Assembly (NCBI GenBank): GCA_964648865.1
Contig: CAZYLV010000004.1
Span: 2,740 to 66,739, forward strand
Direction of reading: 5' to 3'
Length of the DNA stretch: 64,000 nucleotides
Source of the DNA: an uncultured Gammaproteobacteria bacterium
Lineage (GTDB): Bacteria > Patescibacteriota > Patescibacteriia > 2-12-FULL-57-11
Shown: piece after piece, positions 3,455 through 60,800 of the stretch
Layout: each line of letters starts with the position of its first letter
Position numbering within the stretch: position 1 is the first letter of the stretch
The notes under the pieces: generated by a model
The model's input: only the letters and a program-made list of their open reading frames with translations
Databases searched by the model: none
What the model was told of the DNA's origin: nothing
Program-made: the position numbers and the translations under genes

Positions 3455-3850
3455 GGAAAACGATTACAAGCGATGTGAGAAGCCGGGAGGGCTTCGGAAA
3501 AACACGAATGCCCCACGGCTCGGTCTGAATATTGGTTTCGGCGAAGTGCCAAGTGGGTGCCCGCATCCGGCGTCCGGAGACGGCGGACATGGAGGCGCGG
3601 TAGCTCCCCGTGGTGCGGGGACCGCATCCCTTGCGCGTGTCAGCCCGGCCGGACCGTGGCCTGGTCGGAGGGACCGCGGGAAGGGACTCCCAAGAAGTAG
3701 GGTTGTCCCGAAACCAATGCCAGAGAGCGCATGAGGCTGCTCCCAGCATACCGGTCCGGGACGCCCAGCGTCCAGGAAGGACAAGGCGCGACCCTATCCC
3801 AAAACCGGCACGCTGTCAACCCGGCCGAAAGGAAAAAGCGCCGACCGAGG

Positions 3851-4684
3851 TCAGCGCGATGCGGGAGCGACGTACTTGTTGTCCGGCGGGACCCGCTGGA
3901 GGAAGTCGTCCATCTGATCGACCAATCGGCACAGCATCCGATCGAGGTCGAAGAGCATGGCCGGGATGCGCGTATCCTCGTACACGTAGGCGTCGCCGTC
4001 GAGAGGCAGGGACGCAGGGATGTCCCTGAACCGCTCAACCCAGGCTGCGCACGCGGCCAGGTAGCGCTCCGTGGACTCGCGACGCGCCTGCAGGAAGCGC
4101 TCACGCCCGCTTTCCGTGGCCAGCGCCACGCTCCAACACTCTGCCTCAGGCATCGGATAGGGCGCCGCACGCCGCGGATTGCGGAGTCCGTCGACCACGG
4201 TCAGGGCCAGGCCGTCGGCATGGGGCGTATACATGAGATCGAATCCCCCGCGCACGACCACCAGGCTCGGACGCTGCCTCCACCCACGCGCGATGCGGAT
4301 CGCAGTGCCCTCGACCGCAGGCCGGACCTCCCAGCGGAACTCCTCCTGGGGCACCTCGACGGTCAGCTTGTTGCCGGGTCGACGGTAGCGCCAGAGCACG
4401 TCACGGTCCTCCGCGCACCGCCGGCCCAACAAGCAAAGCCAGCCCGGAACCGGCGTGAACCGAAGCGCGTGGATCGTGCGGAAGGAACCCCAACGGGCCA
4501 CGTCCTCTCCCGAGAGGACACACACCGCGTACGTGAGACCCGGGTGCTCCTGGACCCGATATTCGAGGCCCGGTCCTCCACGATCCCAGATCTCCAGATG
4601 GCCGCGGAGCAGATGGTCATTGTCGATGACGCGGACGATCCGCTCCGTGATGAGCTTCAAGGTACTCGTCTCCACTCTTCTCAC
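3851..4684 (-). CDS. hypothetical protein, probably co-transcribed downstream of the CHASE2 cyclase
   Basis: 277-aa ORF starting 21-30 nt after the cyclase stop. The start is uncertain: GTG at 4684, or GTG at 4675 with a GAGGAG SD. No recognised domain. Confidence 0.5.
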   Translation of the reverse strand: MRRVETSTLKLITERIVRVIDNDHLLRGHLEIWDRGGPGLEYRVQEHPGLTYAVCVLSGEDVARWGSFRTIHALRFTPVPGWLCLLGRRCAEDRDVLWRYRRPGNKLTVEVPQEEFRWEVRPAVEGTAIRIARGWRQRPSLVVVRGGFDLMYTPHADGLALTVVDGLRNPRRAAPYPMPEAECWSVALATESGRERFLQARRESTERYLAACAAWVERFRDIPASLPLDGDAYVYEDTRIPAMLFDLDRMLCRLVDQMDDFLQRVPPDNKYVAPASR

Positions 4685-34516: not shown

Positions 34517-34551
34517 AAAAGAGGGTCCTCAGGGACCCCCGGTCGCCGCGC
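34517..34551 (-). terminator. intrinsic terminator of the 34553 gene
   Basis: Minus strand: gggtcc-ctga-ggaccc followed by UCUUUUUUUG. Confidence 0.55.
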
Positions 34552-34552
34552 C

Positions 34553-35089
34553 TCAGATGACGTCGGGCGACGTCGGTACCGTCATCGGCGGGAACGCCGT
34601 CACGGCATCGTCGCAGTCGCGCTCGATGATTCCGAGCGCAGCGTCGAACCCGTCGTAGCACTCCGCGAGCGTGTCATGGCAGTCCCGCAACGCGTCCTGC
34701 TGACCGTCCAGCAGGCCCGCGCTGTCGTCGGCGACCTCCGCGTTCCGCTCGATGCAGGCCGCGACCAGCCGCTCGCTCTCCGCGACGAGCTGCCGCTCCC
34801 GCCGCTCGTCCGTGACGCCGCGGCGCAGCAGGATGAGCCGCCGTGCCGCCTCCAGACAGGGCTGGTCCGTGACCGCGAGGATGTCGCGGATCTCGCTCCG
34901 CAACATCCGGCGCGCGTCGTCCGGCGTCATGCCGGGGAAGCCGACCGGCTCCTCCGGCAGGACCACCAGCACCGAAGCCGACACGGTGCCGGACGACTCC
35001 TGCGGGGCATCGAGCCGTCCGCAGACGAACCCCGCTCCGCATGCGATGCCGACGACCGCGGCGAACCCCCACACTTGTCTCTCTCGCAT
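34553..35089 (-). CDS. hypothetical lipoprotein
   Basis: 178 aa with a signal peptide and lipobox (VVGIACGAG). Translationally coupled to the upstream small ORF. Confidence 0.5.
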   Translation of the reverse strand: MRERQVWGFAAVVGIACGAGFVCGRLDAPQESSGTVSASVLVVLPEEPVGFPGMTPDDARRMLRSEIRDILAVTDQPCLEAARRLILLRRGVTDERRERQLVAESERLVAACIERNAEVADDSAGLLDGQQDALRDCHDTLAECYDGFDAALGIIERDCDDAVTAFPPMTVPTSPDVI

Positions 35090-35101
35090 CTCTCCTCCTC
35101 C

Positions 35102-35239
35102 CTACGGCTCGGCGACGCTCGGCTCGTACGGGGTGCGGTTCTCGTCGCCGCACCGCTGCACGAGGCTGATCGCGCCGATCAAGAGCAGCATGATGACCAC
35201 AAGGGGCCAGTTCAGGTCCGAACCCTTGTCTCTCTTCAT
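35102..35239 (-). CDS. small single-TM protein (45 aa)
   Basis: ATG 35239 preceded by AAGGAGGTGAG. The ORF track extends to GTG 35302. Sequence MKRDKGSDLNWPLVVIMLLLIGAISLV... Confidence 0.35.
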   Translation of the reverse strand: MKRDKGSDLNWPLVVIMLLLIGAISLVQRCGDENRTPYEPSVAEP

Positions 35240-35357
35240 CTCACCTCCTTGGACCGGACGGATGGGCGAGGCGACGCGGGGAGAGTGTGCGCCGCTGCTC
35301 ACGCATCCATCGCGTCCAAGGAAGCCGCTCCTCCGGGAGCACCAGCGGGTGGTGCGC

Positions 35358-35392
35358 CCGGAGAAGAACCGGATACCGCTCCGGTGGGCGTT
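35358..35392 (-). repeat. family-A structured intergenic repeat, copy A4 (terminator-like hairpin)
   Basis: Minus sense cgcccacc-ccgga-gcggta-tccgg-ttcttctcc, directly after the stop of the 35393 gene. Confidence 0.55.
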
Positions 35393-35824
35393 TCACTCCA
35401 TGGCGAGGGACGTCGTGTCCCGACAGATGCGGGACTCCGCCTGCTCGTCGACGCGCCCGTCGCAGTCGTTGTCGACCGCGTCGGAGACCTCGCAGTAGTC
35501 CGGGTGGACGCGCGGATCGCCGTCGTCGCAGTCGCGGCCGCCGCAGGCCACCGAGGCCTCGCCGTCGTTGTCGTCGTCCGCCAACCGGTGGATGCACGTC
35601 CGGCCGCCGCCGATGCACACCTCCCACTCGCAGTCCGAGAGATGGGTGACGGTCGTACCGGGACCGTACTCGCGCACCGCGGCGGCCTCGATGGCCGCGC
35701 GGCGCTCGGCGCGGATGCGCGCGTACTCCGCGGCGCGGCGCGTGACGTACTGGTCGAGCGCGGCACAGCCGCTGCAGGCGACGATGATGGCTGACGCCTG
35801 GAGCAGCACGATGAAGCTCTTCAC
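35393..35824 (-). CDS. lipoprotein with MopE-like putative metal-binding Cys/Asp repeats
   Basis: GTG 35824 preceded by GGAGGG; the ORF runs to 35851. Lipobox IIVACSGC. Repeats of the C-x-D-x-D-x-D-G type (DNDCDGRVDE, CGGRDCDDGD). Confidence 0.6.
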   Translation of the reverse strand: MKSFIVLLQASAIIVACSGCAALDQYVTRRAAEYARIRAERRAAIEAAAVREYGPGTTVTHLSDCEWEVCIGGGRTCIHRLADDDNDGEASVACGGRDCDDGDPRVHPDYCEVSDAVDNDCDGRVDEQAESRICRDTTSLAME

Positions 35825-35911
35825 GTTGGACCCTCCTTCCCAGGCCGCCACCGCACCGCGGTGATGGGCTGGGGAAAGGGCCGGAATGTCGCTTCCGGTG
35901 GGCGATGCGAC
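35825..35911 (-). repeat. family-A structured intergenic repeat, copy A1, carrying an X-type 3' segment shared with B1
   Basis: Hairpin ccggaa-tgtcgc-ttccgg (plus strand 35881-35898), then ccctttcccc, a 10-bp palindrome caccgcggtg and the SD. Confidence 0.6.
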
Positions 35912-36709
35912 TCAGGGCCGCGCGTCGAGGTCGTCAAGCAGCGTGACGCGCGAGAGCGCGATGCGGTCGTAATCGGAGACCGACGCGACCGGCGACCCCA
36001 GCGTGTAGTTGACGAAGAAGGCGTCCTCGACGATCCGCGACCGGAAGCGCGCGCTCGGCGCGAACACCGCGTCGGCGACGGCCGGAGCGATGGGCCGCAG
36101 CACGCCGCCGACATCGACGACGTAGAGCCGGTCCGGGGCGCTTTCCAGGCCGAGGACATAGGTCCCGGGGCGGACCGTGACGTTGCTGCCGGCGAGCGGG
36201 ATGCCGCTGAGCACTTCGCCGGAGACCACCATGACGTGATTGCAGATGTGGCTGCGGACGCCATCCTCGAGCCAGTGGTGCACCGGGCCTGCGGCCGTAT
36301 CTTCGCCGAACCAGGACATCAACTCGATCTCCGAAGGGAAGACATGCCGCCGACCGTCACGTCCGATGACGTAGACCTGATAGCTGCCCTCCCAACGCAC
36401 AAGCGCGCCGGGTGCAAGGTCGCGACCGTCGGACCGCAGGCAGGTGCGGCAGTGGCATCCGCCGCCGATACCCGGGGAGGCCTGCAAGAAGCCGCACACA
36501 GGCGGGCGACCGGGTTCCGGCTCCTCACACCCCGGCGCGGGCGGTCCGGCATCGCTGCCGGCATCCCTTCCCGCGTCCGTCCCGCTGTCGACGGGAAGCG
36601 CCGCGTCCGGCACGCCGACGTCGACCAGATGCGGCTCCGGGCAGGCCGGAGCCGTCCGTGCACCGCAGCCGCTCGTGCTGAACGCGAGCGCGAGAATCAG
36701 GGAACGCAT
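35912..36709 (-). CDS. hypothetical lipoprotein (265 aa) with an Asp/Gly/Pro-rich N-terminal region
   Basis: ATG 36709 preceded by GGAGGAGG. Lipobox LAFSTSGC. Confidence 0.55.
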   Translation of the reverse strand: MRSLILALAFSTSGCGARTAPACPEPHLVDVGVPDAALPVDSGTDAGRDAGSDAGPPAPGCEEPEPGRPPVCGFLQASPGIGGGCHCRTCLRSDGRDLAPGALVRWEGSYQVYVIGRDGRRHVFPSEIELMSWFGEDTAAGPVHHWLEDGVRSHICNHVMVVSGEVLSGIPLAGSNVTVRPGTYVLGLESAPDRLYVVDVGGVLRPIAPAVADAVFAPSARFRSRIVEDAFFVNYTLGSPVASVSDYDRIALSRVTLLDDLDARP

Positions 36710-36790
36710 CGTTTCCTCCTCCCAGACCGTCTCACGTGAGGCGGTCTCGGAAAAGGGCCGGAATGTCGCTTCCGGTGGGCGCCGTGGCCG
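36710..36790 (-). repeat. family-A structured intergenic repeat, copy A2
   Basis: Hairpin ccggaa-tgtcgc-ttccgg (36758-36775) plus a 24-bp palindrome agaccgtctcacgtgaggcggtct (36724-36747) abutting the SD. Confidence 0.6.
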
Positions 36791-37048
36791 TCAGTGCACG
36801 CGGGGGCACGTCCAGGCATCGAGGATCTCCGGACACGGTCGCTCGGACTGCGGGACCGTCCGACGGTCCCATGGGTCGAGCAGGTCGCAATGGAGCTCGA
36901 CCGGCTCGTCCGGCGAGGAGCGCTCCCCCTCCCAGGCGGGCGAGGTGAACAGATGCGGCTCAAGCCACGCCTCGGATGGCCGTGCGGGCCGCGACGGCAC
37001 GCCGCACGCCGCGAGCAGCACCACGGAAAGGAACATGAAACGCTGCAC
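36791..37048 (-). CDS. small lipoprotein (about 86 aa)
   Basis: ORF track runs to 37075, but that ATG lies inside the palindrome. GTG 37048 has GGAGGAG at 6-8 nt and gives M-QRFMFLSVVLLAACG (lipobox). Confidence 0.4.
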   Translation of the reverse strand: MQRFMFLSVVLLAACGVPSRPARPSEAWLEPHLFTSPAWEGERSSPDEPVELHCDLLDPWDRRTVPQSERPCPEILDAWTCPRVH

Positions 37049-37125
37049 GTCTCTCCTCCTCCCAGACCATCTCATGTGAGCTGGTCTCGGAAAAGGGCCC
37101 GATGTCGCTCGGGTGGGCGCTGCCG
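37049..37125 (-). repeat. family-A structured intergenic repeat, copy A3
   Basis: Hairpin cccga-tgtcgc-tcggg (37098-37113) has the stem changed on both sides with the loop conserved. Palindrome agaccatctcatgtgagctggtct (37064-37087) shows a G-C to A-T covariation relative to A2. Confidence 0.6.
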
Positions 37126-37725
37126 TCAGCGGCAGAACAGATCCTCGTCGGTCATACCATCGCAGTCGTTGTCCATGCCGTCGCAGACTTCGACAGACGG
37201 ACCGACTTCACGGATACAGGCGCTCCATCGCCCTGCGGAGCAGGTCTGGACGCCGCGCGCGCACTCGCCGAGGTCCGTGCCGCACAGCTGTGTATCCCCC
37301 TCCATGCAGCTGCAGCCCTCGTCGACCACGCCGTCGCAGTCGTTGTCGAGGCCGTCACAGGTCTCGGCGCCATCCGGGACGCACCCCACGATCTCGATGG
37401 TCGCGAGCGTGGTGACATGCGGACGCGGCGTATCGAGATGCGTTTCGTACGCGGTCACCTCGCCATCCTCCCAACAGACCACCGCCAGGGCGACGGCCGA
37501 GGCGACGATGTTGAACGTCAGGATCGCCAGGGCGTAGTTCCGCCAGCGCCCCGAGGGGTCCGTGGCCCGCACCGCCGCCTTCTCCTCACGGAGGACCTCG
37601 TTGAGCCGCCGCTCCGCCTCGAGCTGGGCCGCCCAGGCATTGCGGTAGTCGTCGTGCGGCTGGGGCGAGAGACGCCGAAGCGTCCAGACCACGGACCGCA
37701 GCAGGAGCATGCGCATCGTGCGCAT
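37126..37725 (-). CDS. membrane protein with C-terminal MopE-like Cys/Asp repeats
   Basis: ATG 37725 preceded by GGAGGGAAG; the ORF runs to 37851. TM helix YALAILTFNIVASAVALAVVCW. Repeats CDGLDNDCDGVVDEG and CDGMDNDCDGMTDED. Confidence 0.55.
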   Translation of the reverse strand: MRTMRMLLLRSVVWTLRRLSPQPHDDYRNAWAAQLEAERRLNEVLREEKAAVRATDPSGRWRNYALAILTFNIVASAVALAVVCWEDGEVTAYETHLDTPRPHVTTLATIEIVGCVPDGAETCDGLDNDCDGVVDEGCSCMEGDTQLCGTDLGECARGVQTCSAGRWSACIREVGPSVEVCDGMDNDCDGMTDEDLFCR

Positions 37726-37860
37726 CTTCCCTCCACTTCTTGTGAGACGAGAGAGGCATCCTCTCCCCCAAACCGCCACCGGAGTGACGGGCTGGGAAAA
37801 GGACGGGAGGGCGTCGAGCCGGGCTCGATGTCCCTCCCTACGGACCGCCACACGTGCGCC
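37726..37860 (-). repeat. family-B structured intergenic repeat, copy B1
   Basis: Long bipartite hairpin gggaggg-cgtcgagc-cgg-gctcgatg-tccctccc (37805-37838). It shares gggctggg-aaaagg and the downstream X segment with A1. Confidence 0.55.
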
Positions 37861-39318
37861 TTACGGCCCGGCGGGCATGTCGTGGTTGTACCAGTAGAGC
37901 CAGCCGGAGGTCTCGTCGATCTCCGCCGGGTCGATCGTCGCCGGATCGGTCGGCACGACGACGTATCCGCTCGTCCAGCCCAAGTCGACCTCGCACGAGC
38001 CGCTGTAGTCGCGACGGAACACGCTGTACGACGAGCACAGCAGTCCGCCCCAGGCGAAGCGCACGGACGGGTCCGTGCCGATGTCCCGGATCGTCCACTG
38101 GCGGTCGGCGACGCCGTAGCGGCGCACGCCCGTCGCGAGGTCCACCCAGCTGACCATCGTCCCGGGACGGGCACCGACCTGCTCGACCGTCGCCGTGAGG
38201 CGCGCGGCCGCGTAGGTCTCGTCCGGGACGACCACCGCGTTGGCGCAGATGGTGTACGGATGCCATCGCGGGTCCGGCGGGAACCGGAACCAGTCGATGA
38301 ACTCGCGCATGGAGCGGAACTCGAAGATCCTCTGGGGGATTTCGAGATCCGTCCCGTAGCGGAGCGTCGGGTCGCTGACCGTGCGGAAGAGCCCGCTCGG
38401 CCGCGCATCCGGGCTGGCCGCGTACCAGGGCTCCGGCCCGCGCACCACACCCTCGCAGCGCGGGGTGCCGCCACCCGGGTCCTCGGCCAGACGCAGCAGG
38501 CCGTGCTCCGGTACGTCGATGTACCGGCCGACCTGCGGACAACCGATGAAGTTCGTGCCGCTCTCGGCGTCCGCGACGCTTCCGATGGGAAGCGCCCACT
38601 GCAGCGCGCGGCTGCGGTAGACCTCGGGATCGGCGAACGTGATGTAGATGACCACGTCCTCCGTGTACCAGGTGCTGCCGTCGGTCGGCGGTGCGACAGG
38701 GACGGCGATGCCGTCCGTGGCGAGCGCCTCGGCGGTCACGTCCTGGACGAGGACCGGCGGAAGCCGGACGTCGTCCACATGCACGCGAATCCGGAAGAGA
38801 TCGTCCGGGTCGCCGGCCCGCAGCTCGGGCCGGATGCGCAGGGTACGGACGTCCGTGGGGCCGAACAGCTCGACCCACAGGAAGTAACCGTCCTCGTTCC
38901 ACGGCTCACGCTCGCCCGTGCACCGCGTGTAGGGCATGGCCGCGTACGTGCCACCCTCCGGGACGACGCTCTCGCAGGACAGCGGCTGCTCGCAGAACGA
39001 GAGCAGGTCCTGGTAGTCCCGCGGATCACGGGGCGCCTCGACCTCACGCGTGTGGTGGCAGTCGCCGCCTTCGCAGGCGTCGACCGTCTCCGCGTCGCCG
39101 TCGTCGCAGTCGGCCACGCTCGTGCACAGGCCGGCCTCGACGGTCCGTTCGTGGTTGCAGAAGCCGGAGTCGGCCTCGCACCAGTCGAGCGTCTGGTCAT
39201 CGCGGTCGTCGCATTCGGCGTCCGCCTCGCAGCCGACCATCTCGTGGATGATCTCGATCCGCTCCGTGGAACAGGCCGAAATCAGCGCGGCGCTCACCGC
39301 ACACAGAAGCATCCGCAT
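37861..39318 (-). CDS. lipoprotein (485 aa) with N-terminal Cys/Asp-rich repeats and a large C-terminal domain of unknown function
   Basis: Start at the in-frame M44 (ATG preceded by AAGGAGGA); the ORF track extends to 39447. Lipobox LISAC. Repeats CEADAECDDRDD, CDDGDAETVDAC. Confidence 0.6.
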   Translation of the reverse strand: MRMLLCAVSAALISACSTERIEIIHEMVGCEADAECDDRDDQTLDWCEADSGFCNHERTVEAGLCTSVADCDDGDAETVDACEGGDCHHTREVEAPRDPRDYQDLLSFCEQPLSCESVVPEGGTYAAMPYTRCTGEREPWNEDGYFLWVELFGPTDVRTLRIRPELRAGDPDDLFRIRVHVDDVRLPPVLVQDVTAEALATDGIAVPVAPPTDGSTWYTEDVVIYITFADPEVYRSRALQWALPIGSVADAESGTNFIGCPQVGRYIDVPEHGLLRLAEDPGGGTPRCEGVVRGPEPWYAASPDARPSGLFRTVSDPTLRYGTDLEIPQRIFEFRSMREFIDWFRFPPDPRWHPYTICANAVVVPDETYAAARLTATVEQVGARPGTMVSWVDLATGVRRYGVADRQWTIRDIGTDPSVRFAWGGLLCSSYSVFRRDYSGSCEVDLGWTSGYVVVPTDPATIDPAEIDETSGWLYWYNHDMPAGP

Positions 39319-39450
39319 CGCTTTCCTCCTTGTTGTACAGAACTGCCGATGACTTGAGGGCGTTTCCCACCGTGGGAAGCGCTCTCGAGAAATCGGGGGA
39401 GGTCGCCGTCGAGCCGGGCTCGACGGACGCCTCCCCGAGAGGCGCACGGA
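39319..39450 (-). repeat. family-B structured intergenic repeat, copy B2
   Basis: ggggagg-tcgcc-gtcgagc-cgg-gctcgac-ggacg-cctcccc plus a second hairpin gcgtttccc-accgt-gggaagcgc and a shared cgatgacttgagg segment. About 85% identical to B3. Confidence 0.55.
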
Positions 39451-40053
39451 CTACGGGCCATCCGCGTCGAGGAGGTTGTCCACCTCGCGCAGCAGGTCCT
39501 CCGGCGCCATCGTCCCGTCGAGATCGATGACGCCCGGCAGGAAGCGCGTGGGCAGCACGTGCACGCGGTGCTGACGGTCGCTCGTCGGCGCGTAGGCCCG
39601 CACCTCCGCCTCGGTCTTCCGTCGTCCCTCGCGGATGTCTCGAGGGATGCGACGCGCGAGCCGCTCCTCGTCCGTGAGGTGGATGTAGAACTTCCGCGCG
39701 GAGAGCGGAGCCTCCACGTGCAGCGCCAGCGCCCCCTCGAGGACGACCATCGGGGCCGGGGCGATGACCTCGATGCCGCTCGGCTCCGACGTGCGCATGT
39801 CGTAGACCGGCACCTCGGCGGACGCGCCGGCCGCGAGCGTCCGGAGAGCCACGGCGCAGCACTCGAGGTCGATGGCCCGCGGGTCGATCCACTCGTAGGG
39901 CTCACCGCGCGCCTCCGCCGCCTGCTTGTGGCGCAGTCCGCGGTACCAGCGGTCCAAGGTGACGACCGTCGCACCGAACCGCTTGGCCATGAGGGCCGCG
40001 AGCGTCGTCTTGCCGCAGCCGGCGCCGCCGGCCAGGATGACGATGTCTGTCAC
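39451..40053 (-). CDS. uridine kinase / phosphoribulokinase-family P-loop kinase
   Basis: GTG 40053 preceded by AGGAAGGAGAG; the ORF track extends to 40461 through an Arg-rich artefact. ILAGGAGCGKTTLA Walker A motif; about 200 aa. Confidence 0.7.
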   Translation of the reverse strand: MTDIVILAGGAGCGKTTLAALMAKRFGATVVTLDRWYRGLRHKQAAEARGEPYEWIDPRAIDLECCAVALRTLAAGASAEVPVYDMRTSEPSGIEVIAPAPMVVLEGALALHVEAPLSARKFYIHLTDEERLARRIPRDIREGRRKTEAEVRAYAPTSDRQHRVHVLPTRFLPGVIDLDGTMAPEDLLREVDNLLDADGP

Positions 40054-40175
40054 TGTGCTCTCCTTCCTGGGAATACGTCGATGACTTGAGGACGTTTCCC
40101 TTGTGGGGAACCGCACTCGAGAAATCGGGGGAGGACGCCGGTCGAGCTGGGCTCGACAGACGCCTCCCCGCCTCC
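40054..40175 (-). repeat. family-B structured intergenic repeat, copy B3
   Basis: ggggagg...gtcgagc-tgg-gctcgac...cctcccc (40128-40169) plus the hairpin cgtttccc-ttgtg-gggaaccg. Confidence 0.55.
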
Positions 40176-40382
40176 TCACTTGCCCTTGATGGCCTTGCCC
40201 AGCGCTGCGATGGCGCGACCGAGCAGGATGAAGGGCCAGCCGAAGATCCACCGCACGATGCGCATGTAGAAGCGCATCACCGCGGTGCTCCAGGCGTCTC
40301 CGCCCAGGATGTTGGCCACCCCGGCGGACATGACCACGGTCAAGAGCAGGATACCGAGCACCGGTCCGACCAGCTGTTCCAT
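40176..40382 (-). CDS. small two-TM membrane protein (68 aa)
   Basis: ATG 40382 preceded by GGGAGG. Sequence MEQLVGPVLGILLLTVVMSAGV...WIFGWPFILLGRAIAALG. Confidence 0.4.
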   Translation of the reverse strand: MEQLVGPVLGILLLTVVMSAGVANILGGDAWSTAVMRFYMRIVRWIFGWPFILLGRAIAALGKAIKGK

Positions 40383-40593
40383 CACGTCCTCCCGTCGCCC
40401 TCCGGAAGAGAGCGGCGGCAGGAAGCGACAACGCGGCCGGCCGGTCACCTGTGCGGGCCATGGGAAAGCACGGGTGACGCGGCGCGACCGCGCGGTTCGG
40501 GCCAGACTGGGCCTGCAGCTCTCCCCAGAGACGCGGTTCCCAAAGAACGGCCCAAGATAACGGAAAAGCCGGGTCGTGTCAACCCGGCTTCCC

Positions 40594-42402
<1,809 letters not shown>

Positions 42403-43228: not shown

Positions 43229-43780
43229 CTAAGGACGTTCTTGGTCGGTTTCCCATTCGCGTGGATTGTTTGCGATGTATGCGCGGATGGCATGGAGGTG
43301 GCGTTCGGACCGGATGATGCGTTCGTGGTAATTGCGTTGCCATATCGGTAAACCAAACGTGTCGCCGATCCTACTGATTCTGTGGGTCGTTATGGCCTTG
43401 AACGTACGTACCAATTCGCCCAGGTCCGGGGCGTCATAAATGTCGCCCCTACGACCGATGAAACGCCGTTGTCCGTAGGGGCGTGATTCATCACGCCCAG
43501 GTCCAGCCGGATCGGGAATCCACATGACGACACCATGGACATGATTGGGCATGACAACCCATGAATCGGGGATGGTCGGAAACCGATCCGACAGACGGCG
43601 CCACGTTTCATCCACGATCCGCCCGGCATCATTCAATCGCATTTCCCCGTCAACGACGTCGCCAAACAGGCATTCCCGGTGTTTGACCACGACCGTCACG
43701 AAATACGCGCCGGGAGAAGCGTAATCGAAACCGGGCAGGCGGATGGAGCGTCGCCGGTGGGTGTCCGGGTTGAAGGGCAT
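43229..43780 (-). mobile_element. REP-associated tyrosine transposase (RAYT; IS200/IS605 TnpA-like HUH Y1 transposase), apparently intact
   Basis: 183 aa with AYFVTVVV, the HUH motif MPNHVHGVV and the C-terminal WQRNYHERIIRSERHLHAIRAYIANNP (catalytic-Tyr region). Confidence 0.75.
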
Positions 43781-60742: not shown

Positions 60743-60800
60743 GTTCGTAGGGGCGTGATTCATCACGCCCGTCCGAGTTCCCAGCCGGAATCCGGCGCCA
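60743..60800. repeat. roughly 55 bp copy of an internal segment of the RAYT gene (hairpin ggggcgtga-ttca-tcacgcccc preceded by GTAG), spanning the tsaD stop and tsaE start
   Basis: 27 of 28 nt identical to 43471-43499 (gt[c/t]cgtaggggcgtgattcatcacgccc), then cagccgga and atcc/gg similarity with indels. Confidence 0.55.

Follow-up and report, generated by a model that had tools for sequence, protein, structure and literature searches.

What are the structured sequences that separate the genes of a small, co-oriented gene block in an uncultured bacterium that GTDB places in the Patescibacteriota, and do they spread between its genes, insulate them or connect them? The block lies in a 64,000-nt stretch of DNA (contig CAZYLV010000004.1 of assembly GCA_964648865.1, positions 2,740 to 66,739; hereafter, the window), whose structured intergenic sequences had been sorted in a preliminary description into two related repeat families, A and B, the latter with three copies (B1, B2, and B3) that each contain a long bipartite hairpin. 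The explanation that we favor, and consider probable, is that the B elements are composite intercistronic RNA modules in a single operon, g9 to g1, of secreted-protein genes. Judging from where their relatives sit in other genomes, the B elements are inherited in place and are not mobile repeats.

One element in each gap of the block

Every gene from 33.7 to 42.4 kb of the window is on the minus strand, as are the elements between them, and in transcription order the region reads typA, g9-B3-g8-B2-g7-B1-g6-A2-g5-A1-g4-A0-g3-A(-1)-g2-g1. The coordinates first given for the B elements proved exact, each being one complete intergenic gap: B3 (40054-40175) is the entire 122-nt gap between g9 and g8, B2 (39319-39450) the entire 132-nt gap between g8 and g7, and B1 (37726-37860) the entire 135-nt gap between g7 and g6. 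Family A fills the gaps that follow. In A2 (37049-37125, between g6 and g5) a small hairpin with the loop GCGACA is followed by a clamp of CCCUUUUCC and GGAGGAGG around a second hairpin (hairpin 2), and the same design is found in A1 (36710-36790, between g5 and g4) and in A0 (35825-35911, between g4 and g3), whose hairpin 2 is the closest to that of B1. A(-1) (35240-35392, between g3 and g2) is a degenerate form of this design, read by eye, that blastn matches at 67-68% over 64-66 nt (E = 0.001-0.01). The statement that an element separates every pair of genes holds for 7/7 gaps from g9 to g2, including two, A0 and the weaker A(-1), that lie beyond the range first described. Read in the sense of the messenger RNA (mRNA), a gap runs from the stop codon through 6-22 nt to hairpin 1; next come a short tract of pyrimidines or U and a structured leader, and GGAGG then precedes the start codon of the following gene.

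The long hairpins are real, with B1, B2, and B3 folding beyond shuffled controls (z = -2.95, -3.90, and -3.96, respectively), and their core GTCGAGCNGGGCTCGAC (GTCGAGC-NNN-GCTCGAC), allowing up to 2 mismatches, has three sites in the 64 kb, those of B1-B3 only (6 strand-hits versus 0.37 expected, a number reached in 0/100 shuffles). B2 and B3 are as alike as described, with 87% identity over 92-112 aligned nt that include a second hairpin and the CCTCAAGTCATCG segment, and their common unit runs from the foot of hairpin 1, GGGGAGGCGTC, through AGTCATCG; the tails GUCCUUUUCCC and CGAUUUCUCGAG were likewise found behind the hairpins. A difference in the outer stem of B1 that had been taken for a compensatory change can equally be a one-base register shift, GGGAGG...CCTCCC being common to 3/3 copies. 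Grouping the three B copies into one family works for B2 with B3 but not for B1, as this element shares hairpin 1 alone with them and has a leader of A type. 'Family B' is therefore heterogeneous, each element consisting of hairpin 1 plus the structured leader of the next gene. The link that had been drawn between B1 and family A stands, since the downstream half of B1 matches A copies both by covariance model and by blastn (72% over 54 nt to 35832-35885, E = 4e-4; 72% over 50 nt to 36714-36762). The segment cccagccc...ggtggcgg that B1 was said to share with A1 is indeed shared; its best match, however, is A0.

Hairpin 1 and the missing signals between genes

Hairpin 1 has 18 bp in B3 (40128-40169, -32.7 kcal/mol, one U-G wobble in the mRNA sense) and in B2 (39396-39436, -34.5 kcal/mol), with the tail CGAUUUCU in both, and 14 bp in B1 (37805-37838, -23.4 kcal/mol), with the tail GUCCUUUUCCC; in A0-A2 it is small, at 5-6 bp, and its GCGACA loop is conserved. 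The preliminary description held that these hairpins insulate the genes as terminators. The stem-loop part of this claim survives, in that hairpin 1 of B1-B3 begins 6-22 nt past the stop codon like that of an intrinsic terminator, but the U-tract is weak and a consensus terminator scan, set at at least 5 U in the 8 nt directly after the stem, called none of the elements. B2 and B3 have 4 U in the 8 nt past hairpin 1 (UUU-C-U) and B1 has 5/8 with a longest run of 4; four operon-end terminators folded from the window (that of typA left out) have 5-7 U in 8 nt, in runs of 5-7.

A sigma70-type scan of 33.0-44.5 kb revealed 0 promoter-like sites in the intergenic gaps of the block, and the sole such site upstream of it is TTGACA-17-TATCTT at 40554-40582 (minus strand), which overlaps the typA terminator. 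U-rich terminators at the block were found, over the same range, after typA and after g1 only, the latter being a canonical one (34521-34540, minus strand) that is the likely operon end. Other intergenic regions of the genome hold plain AT-rich promoters and terminators with runs of U5-7, and the sigma70 promoters elsewhere in the genome and in its relatives are plain TTGACA-N17-TAnnnT. Because these signals are recognizable where they are present, their absence from seven gaps is meaningful, and because the gaps have neither a promoter nor a strong U-tract, the block reads as one operon, from 40582-40554 to 34540-34521. Full insulation by the hairpins would leave the downstream genes untranscribed, since the gaps lack a promoter-like site.

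The relatives used here are metagenomic contigs with homologues of block genes, and four of them with lower G+C content (L005, L006, L008, and L011) bear on the origin of hairpin 1. In these, g7 is 45-57% identical and has its own TTGACA-N17-TAnnnT promoter and leader, followed by a long bipartite hairpin of B1 build, such that hairpin 1 of B1 stands at the position of the genuine terminator after g7. Of the five terminators after g7, the three in L011 and L008 (two copies) have a 14-15-bp bipartite shape and then 6-7 U, with GAGAGGG...CCCUCUC followed by UUUUCUUUU, which is a canonical terminator, and the L005 and L006 copies have only 4 U in the tail. By this comparison, CCCUCCC-GUCCUUUUCCC of B1 looks like a G+C-enriched remnant of the g7 terminator. 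We infer read-through, stabilization, and translational control by the elements: the high-GC lineage would have weakened the U-tract, such that hairpin 1 may now be a leaky terminator and/or a protective 3'-end hairpin, which would permit read-through while some termination remains, protect the upstream 3' ends and set the relative levels of the cistrons.

The same comparison also lends something to an account in which each gene is its own transcription unit, with hairpin 1 an efficient terminator and the leader holding a promoter unseen by the scan, for example an extracytoplasmic function (ECF)-like GGAAAC-N16-CGTA (B3/L048). Terminator, sigma70 promoter, and leader do occupy the same junctions in the lower-GC relatives, the hairpin at the B2 position in the relative L003 carries a proper U6 tract, conservation of the 3' arm in the B2/B3 leader goes past pairing needs, and both B3 and L048 have CGTA 16 nt after GGAAAC. 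However, the candidate -10 is not kept (B2 and the relative L009 have GCAG), the gaps show no promoter-like site though sigma70 promoters are obvious elsewhere in the genome, the A gaps of just 77-87 nt are filled by two hairpins and a ribosome-binding site, and no sigma or anti-sigma gene was recognized in the block, so that we regard separate units as unlikely.

Two types of leader

The better-supported family is formed by B1 together with family A, whose leader type places a hairpin between a pyrimidine tract and a purine tract. In the module of B1 (37755-37807, minus strand), which scores 78 bits with the covariance model R2, hairpin 2 lies within a helix formed by the pyrimidine tract UCCUUUUCCC and GGGGGAGAGGA. 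R2, seeded with the four B1 orthologues only, matches A0 at 35828-35884 (E = 2e-6), A1 at 36711-36761 (E = 0.004) and, weakly, A2 (E = 0.9), as well as two modules in L003, at 4504-4561 (E = 2e-8) and 552-605 (E = 3e-6), and nothing further in the window or in control loci. These negative controls, which hold no orthologues, came from a g7 protein-alignment profile search of genome contigs that found only the Cys-rich N-terminal motif, in Myxococcota and others. The eight-member A/B1 alignment has 92% of its cells paired, versus 54-65% for slid partners, and changes on both sides at 6/18 pairs, with a covariation score that 0/500 shuffles reach. As this alignment was fitted to R2, its pair counts lean towards structure; the four B1 orthologues alone have 97% of cells paired and 3/7 hairpin-2 pairs doubly changed. 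Folding of B1-type elements also favors the mRNA sense, by 5-12 kcal/mol, and involves 3-8 G-U pairs.

What the tract pairs with differs between the forms: in A1 and A2, CCUUUUCC pairs GGAGGAGG at the ribosome-binding site, whereas the tract of B1 pairs a purine tract 25 nt upstream of the real site, GGAGG at 37730-37734. B1 also has a hairpin 3, GAGAGG-AUG-CCUCUC (37749-37763, minus strand), which is mutually exclusive with the tract pairing, whose CCUCUC can pair with GGAGG instead and whose sequence is kept in 4/4 orthologues (window, L003, L009, and L048). In the favored explanation the leaders would occlude the ribosome-binding site of the next gene. For the short A form, the purine tract paired by the pyrimidine tract would be the ribosome-binding site itself; for B1 it would be a decoy with either the pyrimidine tract or CCUCUC of hairpin 3 as its partner, and its binding by the pyrimidine tract would free CCUCUC to cover the true site, as in the predicted minimum free energy (MFE) fold. 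A two-state relay in B1 is plausible, and the switch itself is predicted from these modeled folds. Taken further, the A/B1 module might be an undescribed riboregulatory relay of the Uhrbacteria-related (Patescibacteria) high-GC lineage, with the terminator pyrimidine tract, decoy, CCUCUC, and true ribosome-binding site as its parts, two foldings that switch the translation of secreted cysteine-rich proteins on some signal or protein, and the B2/B3 leader hairpin as the site of a dedicated factor; this we put forward tentatively and think doubtful.

B2 and B3 lack the tract pairing, which resembles that of fourU leaders, and have a second leader type, a 49-nt irregular long hairpin, CGAUUUCUCGAG...CUCAAGUCAUCG, at 39347-39395 in B2, followed there by GCAGUUCUGUACAAC and the ribosome-binding site GGAGG (39325-39329), and at 40079-40127 in B3, all on the minus strand. 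This hairpin starts within the short U-tract. The leaders of g7-family genes in lower-GC relatives have a conserved 68-nt long hairpin just downstream of the sigma70 promoter, GAUUWUCGAGCU..GAAACGGUCUC-loop-GAGGCCGUUUC..AGCUCGAUAAUC, that is absent from Rfam (L008 1487-1554 and 3151-3218, L006 9881-9948, L011 493-565), and the covariance model R1, built from the two L008 copies and L006, recovers the L011 copy, outside its seed, at E = 0.02. Position and a GAUUUYCGAG basal motif suggested that the B2/B3 leader is homologous to this distant hairpin, and this homology is not supported, as R1 misses B2 and B3. MAFFT with RNAalifold over all leaders gave 0 pairs. Rfam returned 3 tRNAs only for the whole window at gathering thresholds, one chance match (E = 1.5) for 35000-40700 in E-value mode, and no relevant match in six related loci.

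Two smaller features of the leaders deserve mention. An upstream open reading frame starting from the conserved AUG of hairpin 3 was rejected, its peptides being unconserved across the window, L003, and L009. Many elements have a recurrent (U)ACAAC or ACAA just 5' of the ribosome-binding site (CUGUACAACAAGGAGG, CCGUACAACGGAGG, and CCCUACAAUUCUGGAGG; B2 39330-39345, L009 55-62 and 1676-1683, L048 789-796, L003 610-618), which might enhance translation, mark a cleavage site, or act as a CsrA-like site.

Intercistronic hairpins of the early mRNA of phage T7, like the T1/CsrA site of ColE7, serve to cut or mask a message between cistrons, and the long hairpins here could likewise be sites, of RNase III type or bound by a CsrA-like protein, at which the polycistronic mRNA is cut or masked. 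Their size and single bulges suit this idea, hairpin 1 having 18 bp and the B2/B3 leader about 20 bp, as does a sequence conservation greater than structure alone requires. The (U)ACAAC 5' of GGAGG and the AGGAUG that tips hairpin 3 are similar to the CsrA motif RUACARGGAUGU (PMC2896534), but this similarity is weak because GGA belongs to any ribosome-binding site, and hairpin 1 tips that are wholly different in sister lineages argue against a sequence-specific reader of hairpin 1. We judge processing sites to be quite unlikely.

Conservation at orthologous junctions

The relatives have B elements at orthologous junctions, each element being carried by three or four lineages. L009 (g7 61% identical) has the B2 leader upstream of g7, 93% identical, and B1 downstream of it, 88% identical including a GTCGAGCTCCGCTCGAC tip; B1 and its orthologues in L003 and L009 share 86-88% identity, and a further B1 orthologue is present in L049. 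In L003 (g7 63% identical) the B1 element after g7 has a leader nearly identical to that of the window and precedes the g4 orthologue, because g6 and g5 are missing there. In L048 (g8 78% identical) B3 stands upstream of the kinase gene, 89% identical, and, with g7 absent, an A-type hairpin 1 is fused to a B1-type leader directly before g6. The idea that the elements are modular chimeras is borne out by these two relatives, hairpin 1 and leader recombining independently in L048 and the B1 element preceding a different gene in L003. The elements (86-93%) are better conserved than the g7 coding DNA beside them, at 71% identity overall and 60-62% at third codon positions. A search for g6 homologues gave mostly MopE-domain proteins, together with P0018/L050, an unrelated 37%-GC contig.

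Leader orthologues (B2-L009 and B3-L048) are mutually closer than the paralogues B2 and B3, which places the B2/B3 duplication before these lineages. Within a genome the tips of hairpin 1 resemble one another, and between orthologous sites of sister genomes they differ: the window has GUCGAGC..GCUCGAC three times (37805-37838, 39396-39436, and 40128-40169) and L003 has GUGCKCUNCG three times (2035-2071, 3641-3674, and 4478-4506; coordinates approximate), and in the B1 element of L003 the inner stem of hairpin 1 is wholly different (GCGUGCUCUUCGUGAGCGC) with its pairing kept. This pattern points to local homogenization, and we read the tips of neighboring elements as subject to concerted evolution or gene conversion. 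The likeness of copies would, in the favored explanation, come from old local duplication (B2 and B3), not transposition, and also from module exchange at gene gain or loss and from homogenization of hairpin tips within the genome.

Homogenized tips would be expected as well if the elements were DNA-level recombination junctions of a cassette array, either integron-like or substrates of homologous exchange. Gene order varies at element boundaries, from g8-B2-g7-B1-g6-A2-g5-A1-g4 in the window to g7-B1'-g4 in L003 and g8-[A hairpin 1 + B1 leader]-g6 in L048, and the genes are co-oriented and without promoters of their own. Such an array is nevertheless very unlikely in our view: there are no attC core pairs (RYYYAAC...GTTRRRY) on either strand of 35000-40700, no terminal inverted repeats or target duplications, and no recombinase recognized in a Pfam/NCBIfam scan of the block genes and the RAYT-like open reading frame (ORF) nearby, while the conservation of the leaders exceeds what recombination sites need and the B1-type structure favors the sense RNA via its G-U pairs.

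Dispersal and the RAYT-like gene

The preliminary description had also treated A and B as repeats and raised the RAYT-like gene at 43229-43780 as a candidate partner. A repeat family in the sense of repetitive extragenic palindromes (REPs) or miniature inverted-repeat transposable elements (MITEs) did not hold up, no A or B copy being found outside 35.2-40.2 kb in the 64-kb window and 3.8 kb beyond it. The core pattern GGGAGG-N1-9-TCGAGCNNNGCTCGA-N1-9-CCTCCC has 0 matches in 185,579 species-representative genomes, a collection evidently without the source genome, and 3 in JGI metagenomes, all single hairpins on contigs of 41%, 61%, and 73% GC without a block-gene homologue, which we read as sporadic, unrelated look-alikes. 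An unrelated organism of high G+C content has, at L047 1849-1929 (JGI Ga0326726_10033993, 73% GC), a bipartite hairpin of B-like form (GGGAGGCUCAUCGAGCUCGGCUCGAUGAGCCUCC) with a pyrimidine tract behind it; identity to B1 is 69% over 81 nt, with no block-gene homologues nearby, a likeness that we read as convergent design.

The RAYT-like ORF (minus strand) matches NCBIfam REP_Tyr_transpos in two stretches (E = 4e-16, 59 bits, below the cut-off of 80). A GTAG-headed palindrome unrelated to A and B, GTAGGGGCG-N10-CGCCC, occurs in it at 43428-43452 and 43474-43498, and a third time, as an identical 21-mer with the GTAG head, at 60746-60770; an in-frame inverted pair, CGTAGGGGCGTGATTCATCACGCCC / CGTAGGGGCGACATTTATGACGCCCC (43423-43504), fills the gap between the two matched stretches and looks like a REP doublet inserted in its own transposase gene. 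Spread of A and B as REP- or MITE-type mobile repeats by this transposase might be proposed from the gene lying 3 kb away and from the palindromic, extragenic nature of the elements. But no copy flanks the gene or occurs elsewhere in the approximately 68 kb, the elements have no GTAG head, the gene goes with its own, different palindrome, and relatives carry the copies at orthologous junctions; the suggested link to A or B fails, and we consider this origin extremely unlikely. MITE features were also absent from the B2/B3 unit, whose ends are not inverted repeats and whose flanks (CTCTC..GCAGT versus GAGGC..ACGTA) are not duplicated. A template and variable repeat of a diversity-generating retroelement (DGR) was rejected too, the differences between B2 and B3 including C/T, G/A, A/T, C/G, and indels and not being confined to adenine.

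Genes of the block and their surroundings

Upstream of the block and first in transcription order is typA (40594-42402). It is followed by g9 (40176-40385), for a small 69-aa membrane protein, g8 (39451-40053), which a Pfam/NCBIfam scan places among the kinases of the PRK/uridine-kinase family, and g7 (37861-39318), for a Cys-rich lipoprotein of 485 aa without a Pfam match. The remaining genes are g6 (37126-37725) and g3 (35393-35824), both with a MopE motif, g5 (36791-37048), g4 (35912-36709), g2 (between A(-1) and g1) and the last gene, g1 (34553-35089). The exact block proteins are recorded only on one NCBI contig and on short Logan contigs; among named g7 homologues the nearest, at 43-45% identity, belong to metagenome-assembled genomes (MAGs) of Candidatus Uhrbacteria and Patescibacteria, and the synteny of typA to g7 is retained in such relatives.

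Several side observations concern these genes. Within 40386-40593, the terminator of typA and the -35 box of the operon promoter overlap, and the 5' untranslated region (UTR) of g9, about 165 nt, is very strongly folded (-120 kcal/mol over 208 nt) and without a match in Rfam. GGAGG, perfect or nearly so, lies 4-13 nt upstream of the start codon in 9/9 block genes and in about 6/33 other genes of the window, these 33 being crudely called with uncurated start codons. G+C at third codon positions is 0.83-0.91 in block genes versus mostly 0.90-0.97 in other genes. Over its C-terminal half, g4 shares about 30% identity with the C-terminal part of a trypsin-like protein that is convergent to g7 in lower-GC relatives (L005 6533-6940, L006 11506-11862, L008 4869-5198). 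Directly downstream of the last gene of the window, just past its right end, are a cyclodipeptide synthase gene (PF16715) and then an acetyltransferase (L051 2262-2966).

Weighing the composite-module explanation

Several results weigh against our explanation or parts of it. A descriptor of the pyrimidine:purine clamp has 15 hits in the window and 1-20 in shuffles, a range that leaves tract pairing alone without significance. The predicted probability that the ribosome-binding site is unpaired is 0.003 for A1 and A2, 0.09 for B2, 0.11 for B1, and 0.22 for B3, and its median is 0.21 for control genes with a good site; at the 68% G+C of the window nearly any leader is predicted to be paired, such that the contrast is clear for A1, A2, and A(-1) only. 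Pairs of the B2/B3 leader hairpin are invariant within the clade at 16/18 positions, so that it has almost no covariation support, and the antisense strand of B2 folds 10 kcal/mol better than the sense strand. The sequence of the 3' arm, GGGAAACGYCCTCRAGTCATCG, is conserved to a very high degree, which suggests a sequence-specific partner (a protein or a promoter) that our model leaves unnamed. Finally, read-through, 3' ends, and processing are predicted from sequence, and the search for copies spans about 68 kb of the source genome.

Comparison with known systems places the elements among several kinds of intergenic structure. Enterobacterial REPs and bacterial interspersed mosaic elements (BIMEs) act as 3' stabilizers within operons, as at malE-malF, and REPs are short, GTAG-headed, RAYT-linked, and present in hundreds of dispersed copies. 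The elements here are likewise extragenic palindromes between co-transcribed genes that would be able to protect upstream mRNA, whereas B elements are local, syntenic, and longer, and the GTAG palindrome of the genome is a different sequence. RNA thermometers of the fourU type are leaders that sequester the ribosome-binding site. In their pairing pattern alone, A1 and A2 and, in modified form, B1 are similar, with a C-flanked four-U run that pairs a purine-rich site via A-U and G-U; unlike in fourU leaders, the paired purine tract of B1 would be an upstream decoy, and B2 and B3 are without the module. Pneumococcal BOX elements and integron attC sites are modular intergenic repeats, which the elements resemble in being modular, strongly structured, and placed between co-oriented genes. 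They are, however, not dispersed, have no attC cores and no signs of mobility, and their modules correspond to the 3' end of the upstream gene and the 5' leader of the downstream one.

By analogy, the nearest described counterpart is a leaky intercistronic terminator such as the T1 stem-loop of the ColE7 operon, which lies between cei and cel, lowers read-through and also affects the stability and translation of the downstream cistron (PMC2896534). Both are G+C-rich stem-loops just past the upstream stop codon, within an operon and beside the downstream ribosome-binding site; here, in contrast, there are seven successive junctions, and the U-tract is shorter and doubles as a strand of a second helix. 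As they are inherited in place and not mobile, they amount to a fairly ordinary kind of gene-expression punctuation: lineage-specific intercistronic modules of a terminator-derived hairpin plus a structured leader, and not a new kind of genetic element.

For repeat hunting this carries a caution, in that local, syntenic, structured spacers can mimic a dispersed repeat family within one window. It also yields a set of RNA modules absent from Rfam, with one covariance model and eight members, which is small and testable. To our knowledge, almost nothing is known of regulation in uncultured Patescibacteria-type bacteria. In this high-GC lineage, genes that once stood apart, with a terminator, a promoter, and a leader apiece, seem to have been condensed into a single operon, with the old terminator hairpins and leaders retained as fused spacers that are better conserved than the proteins.

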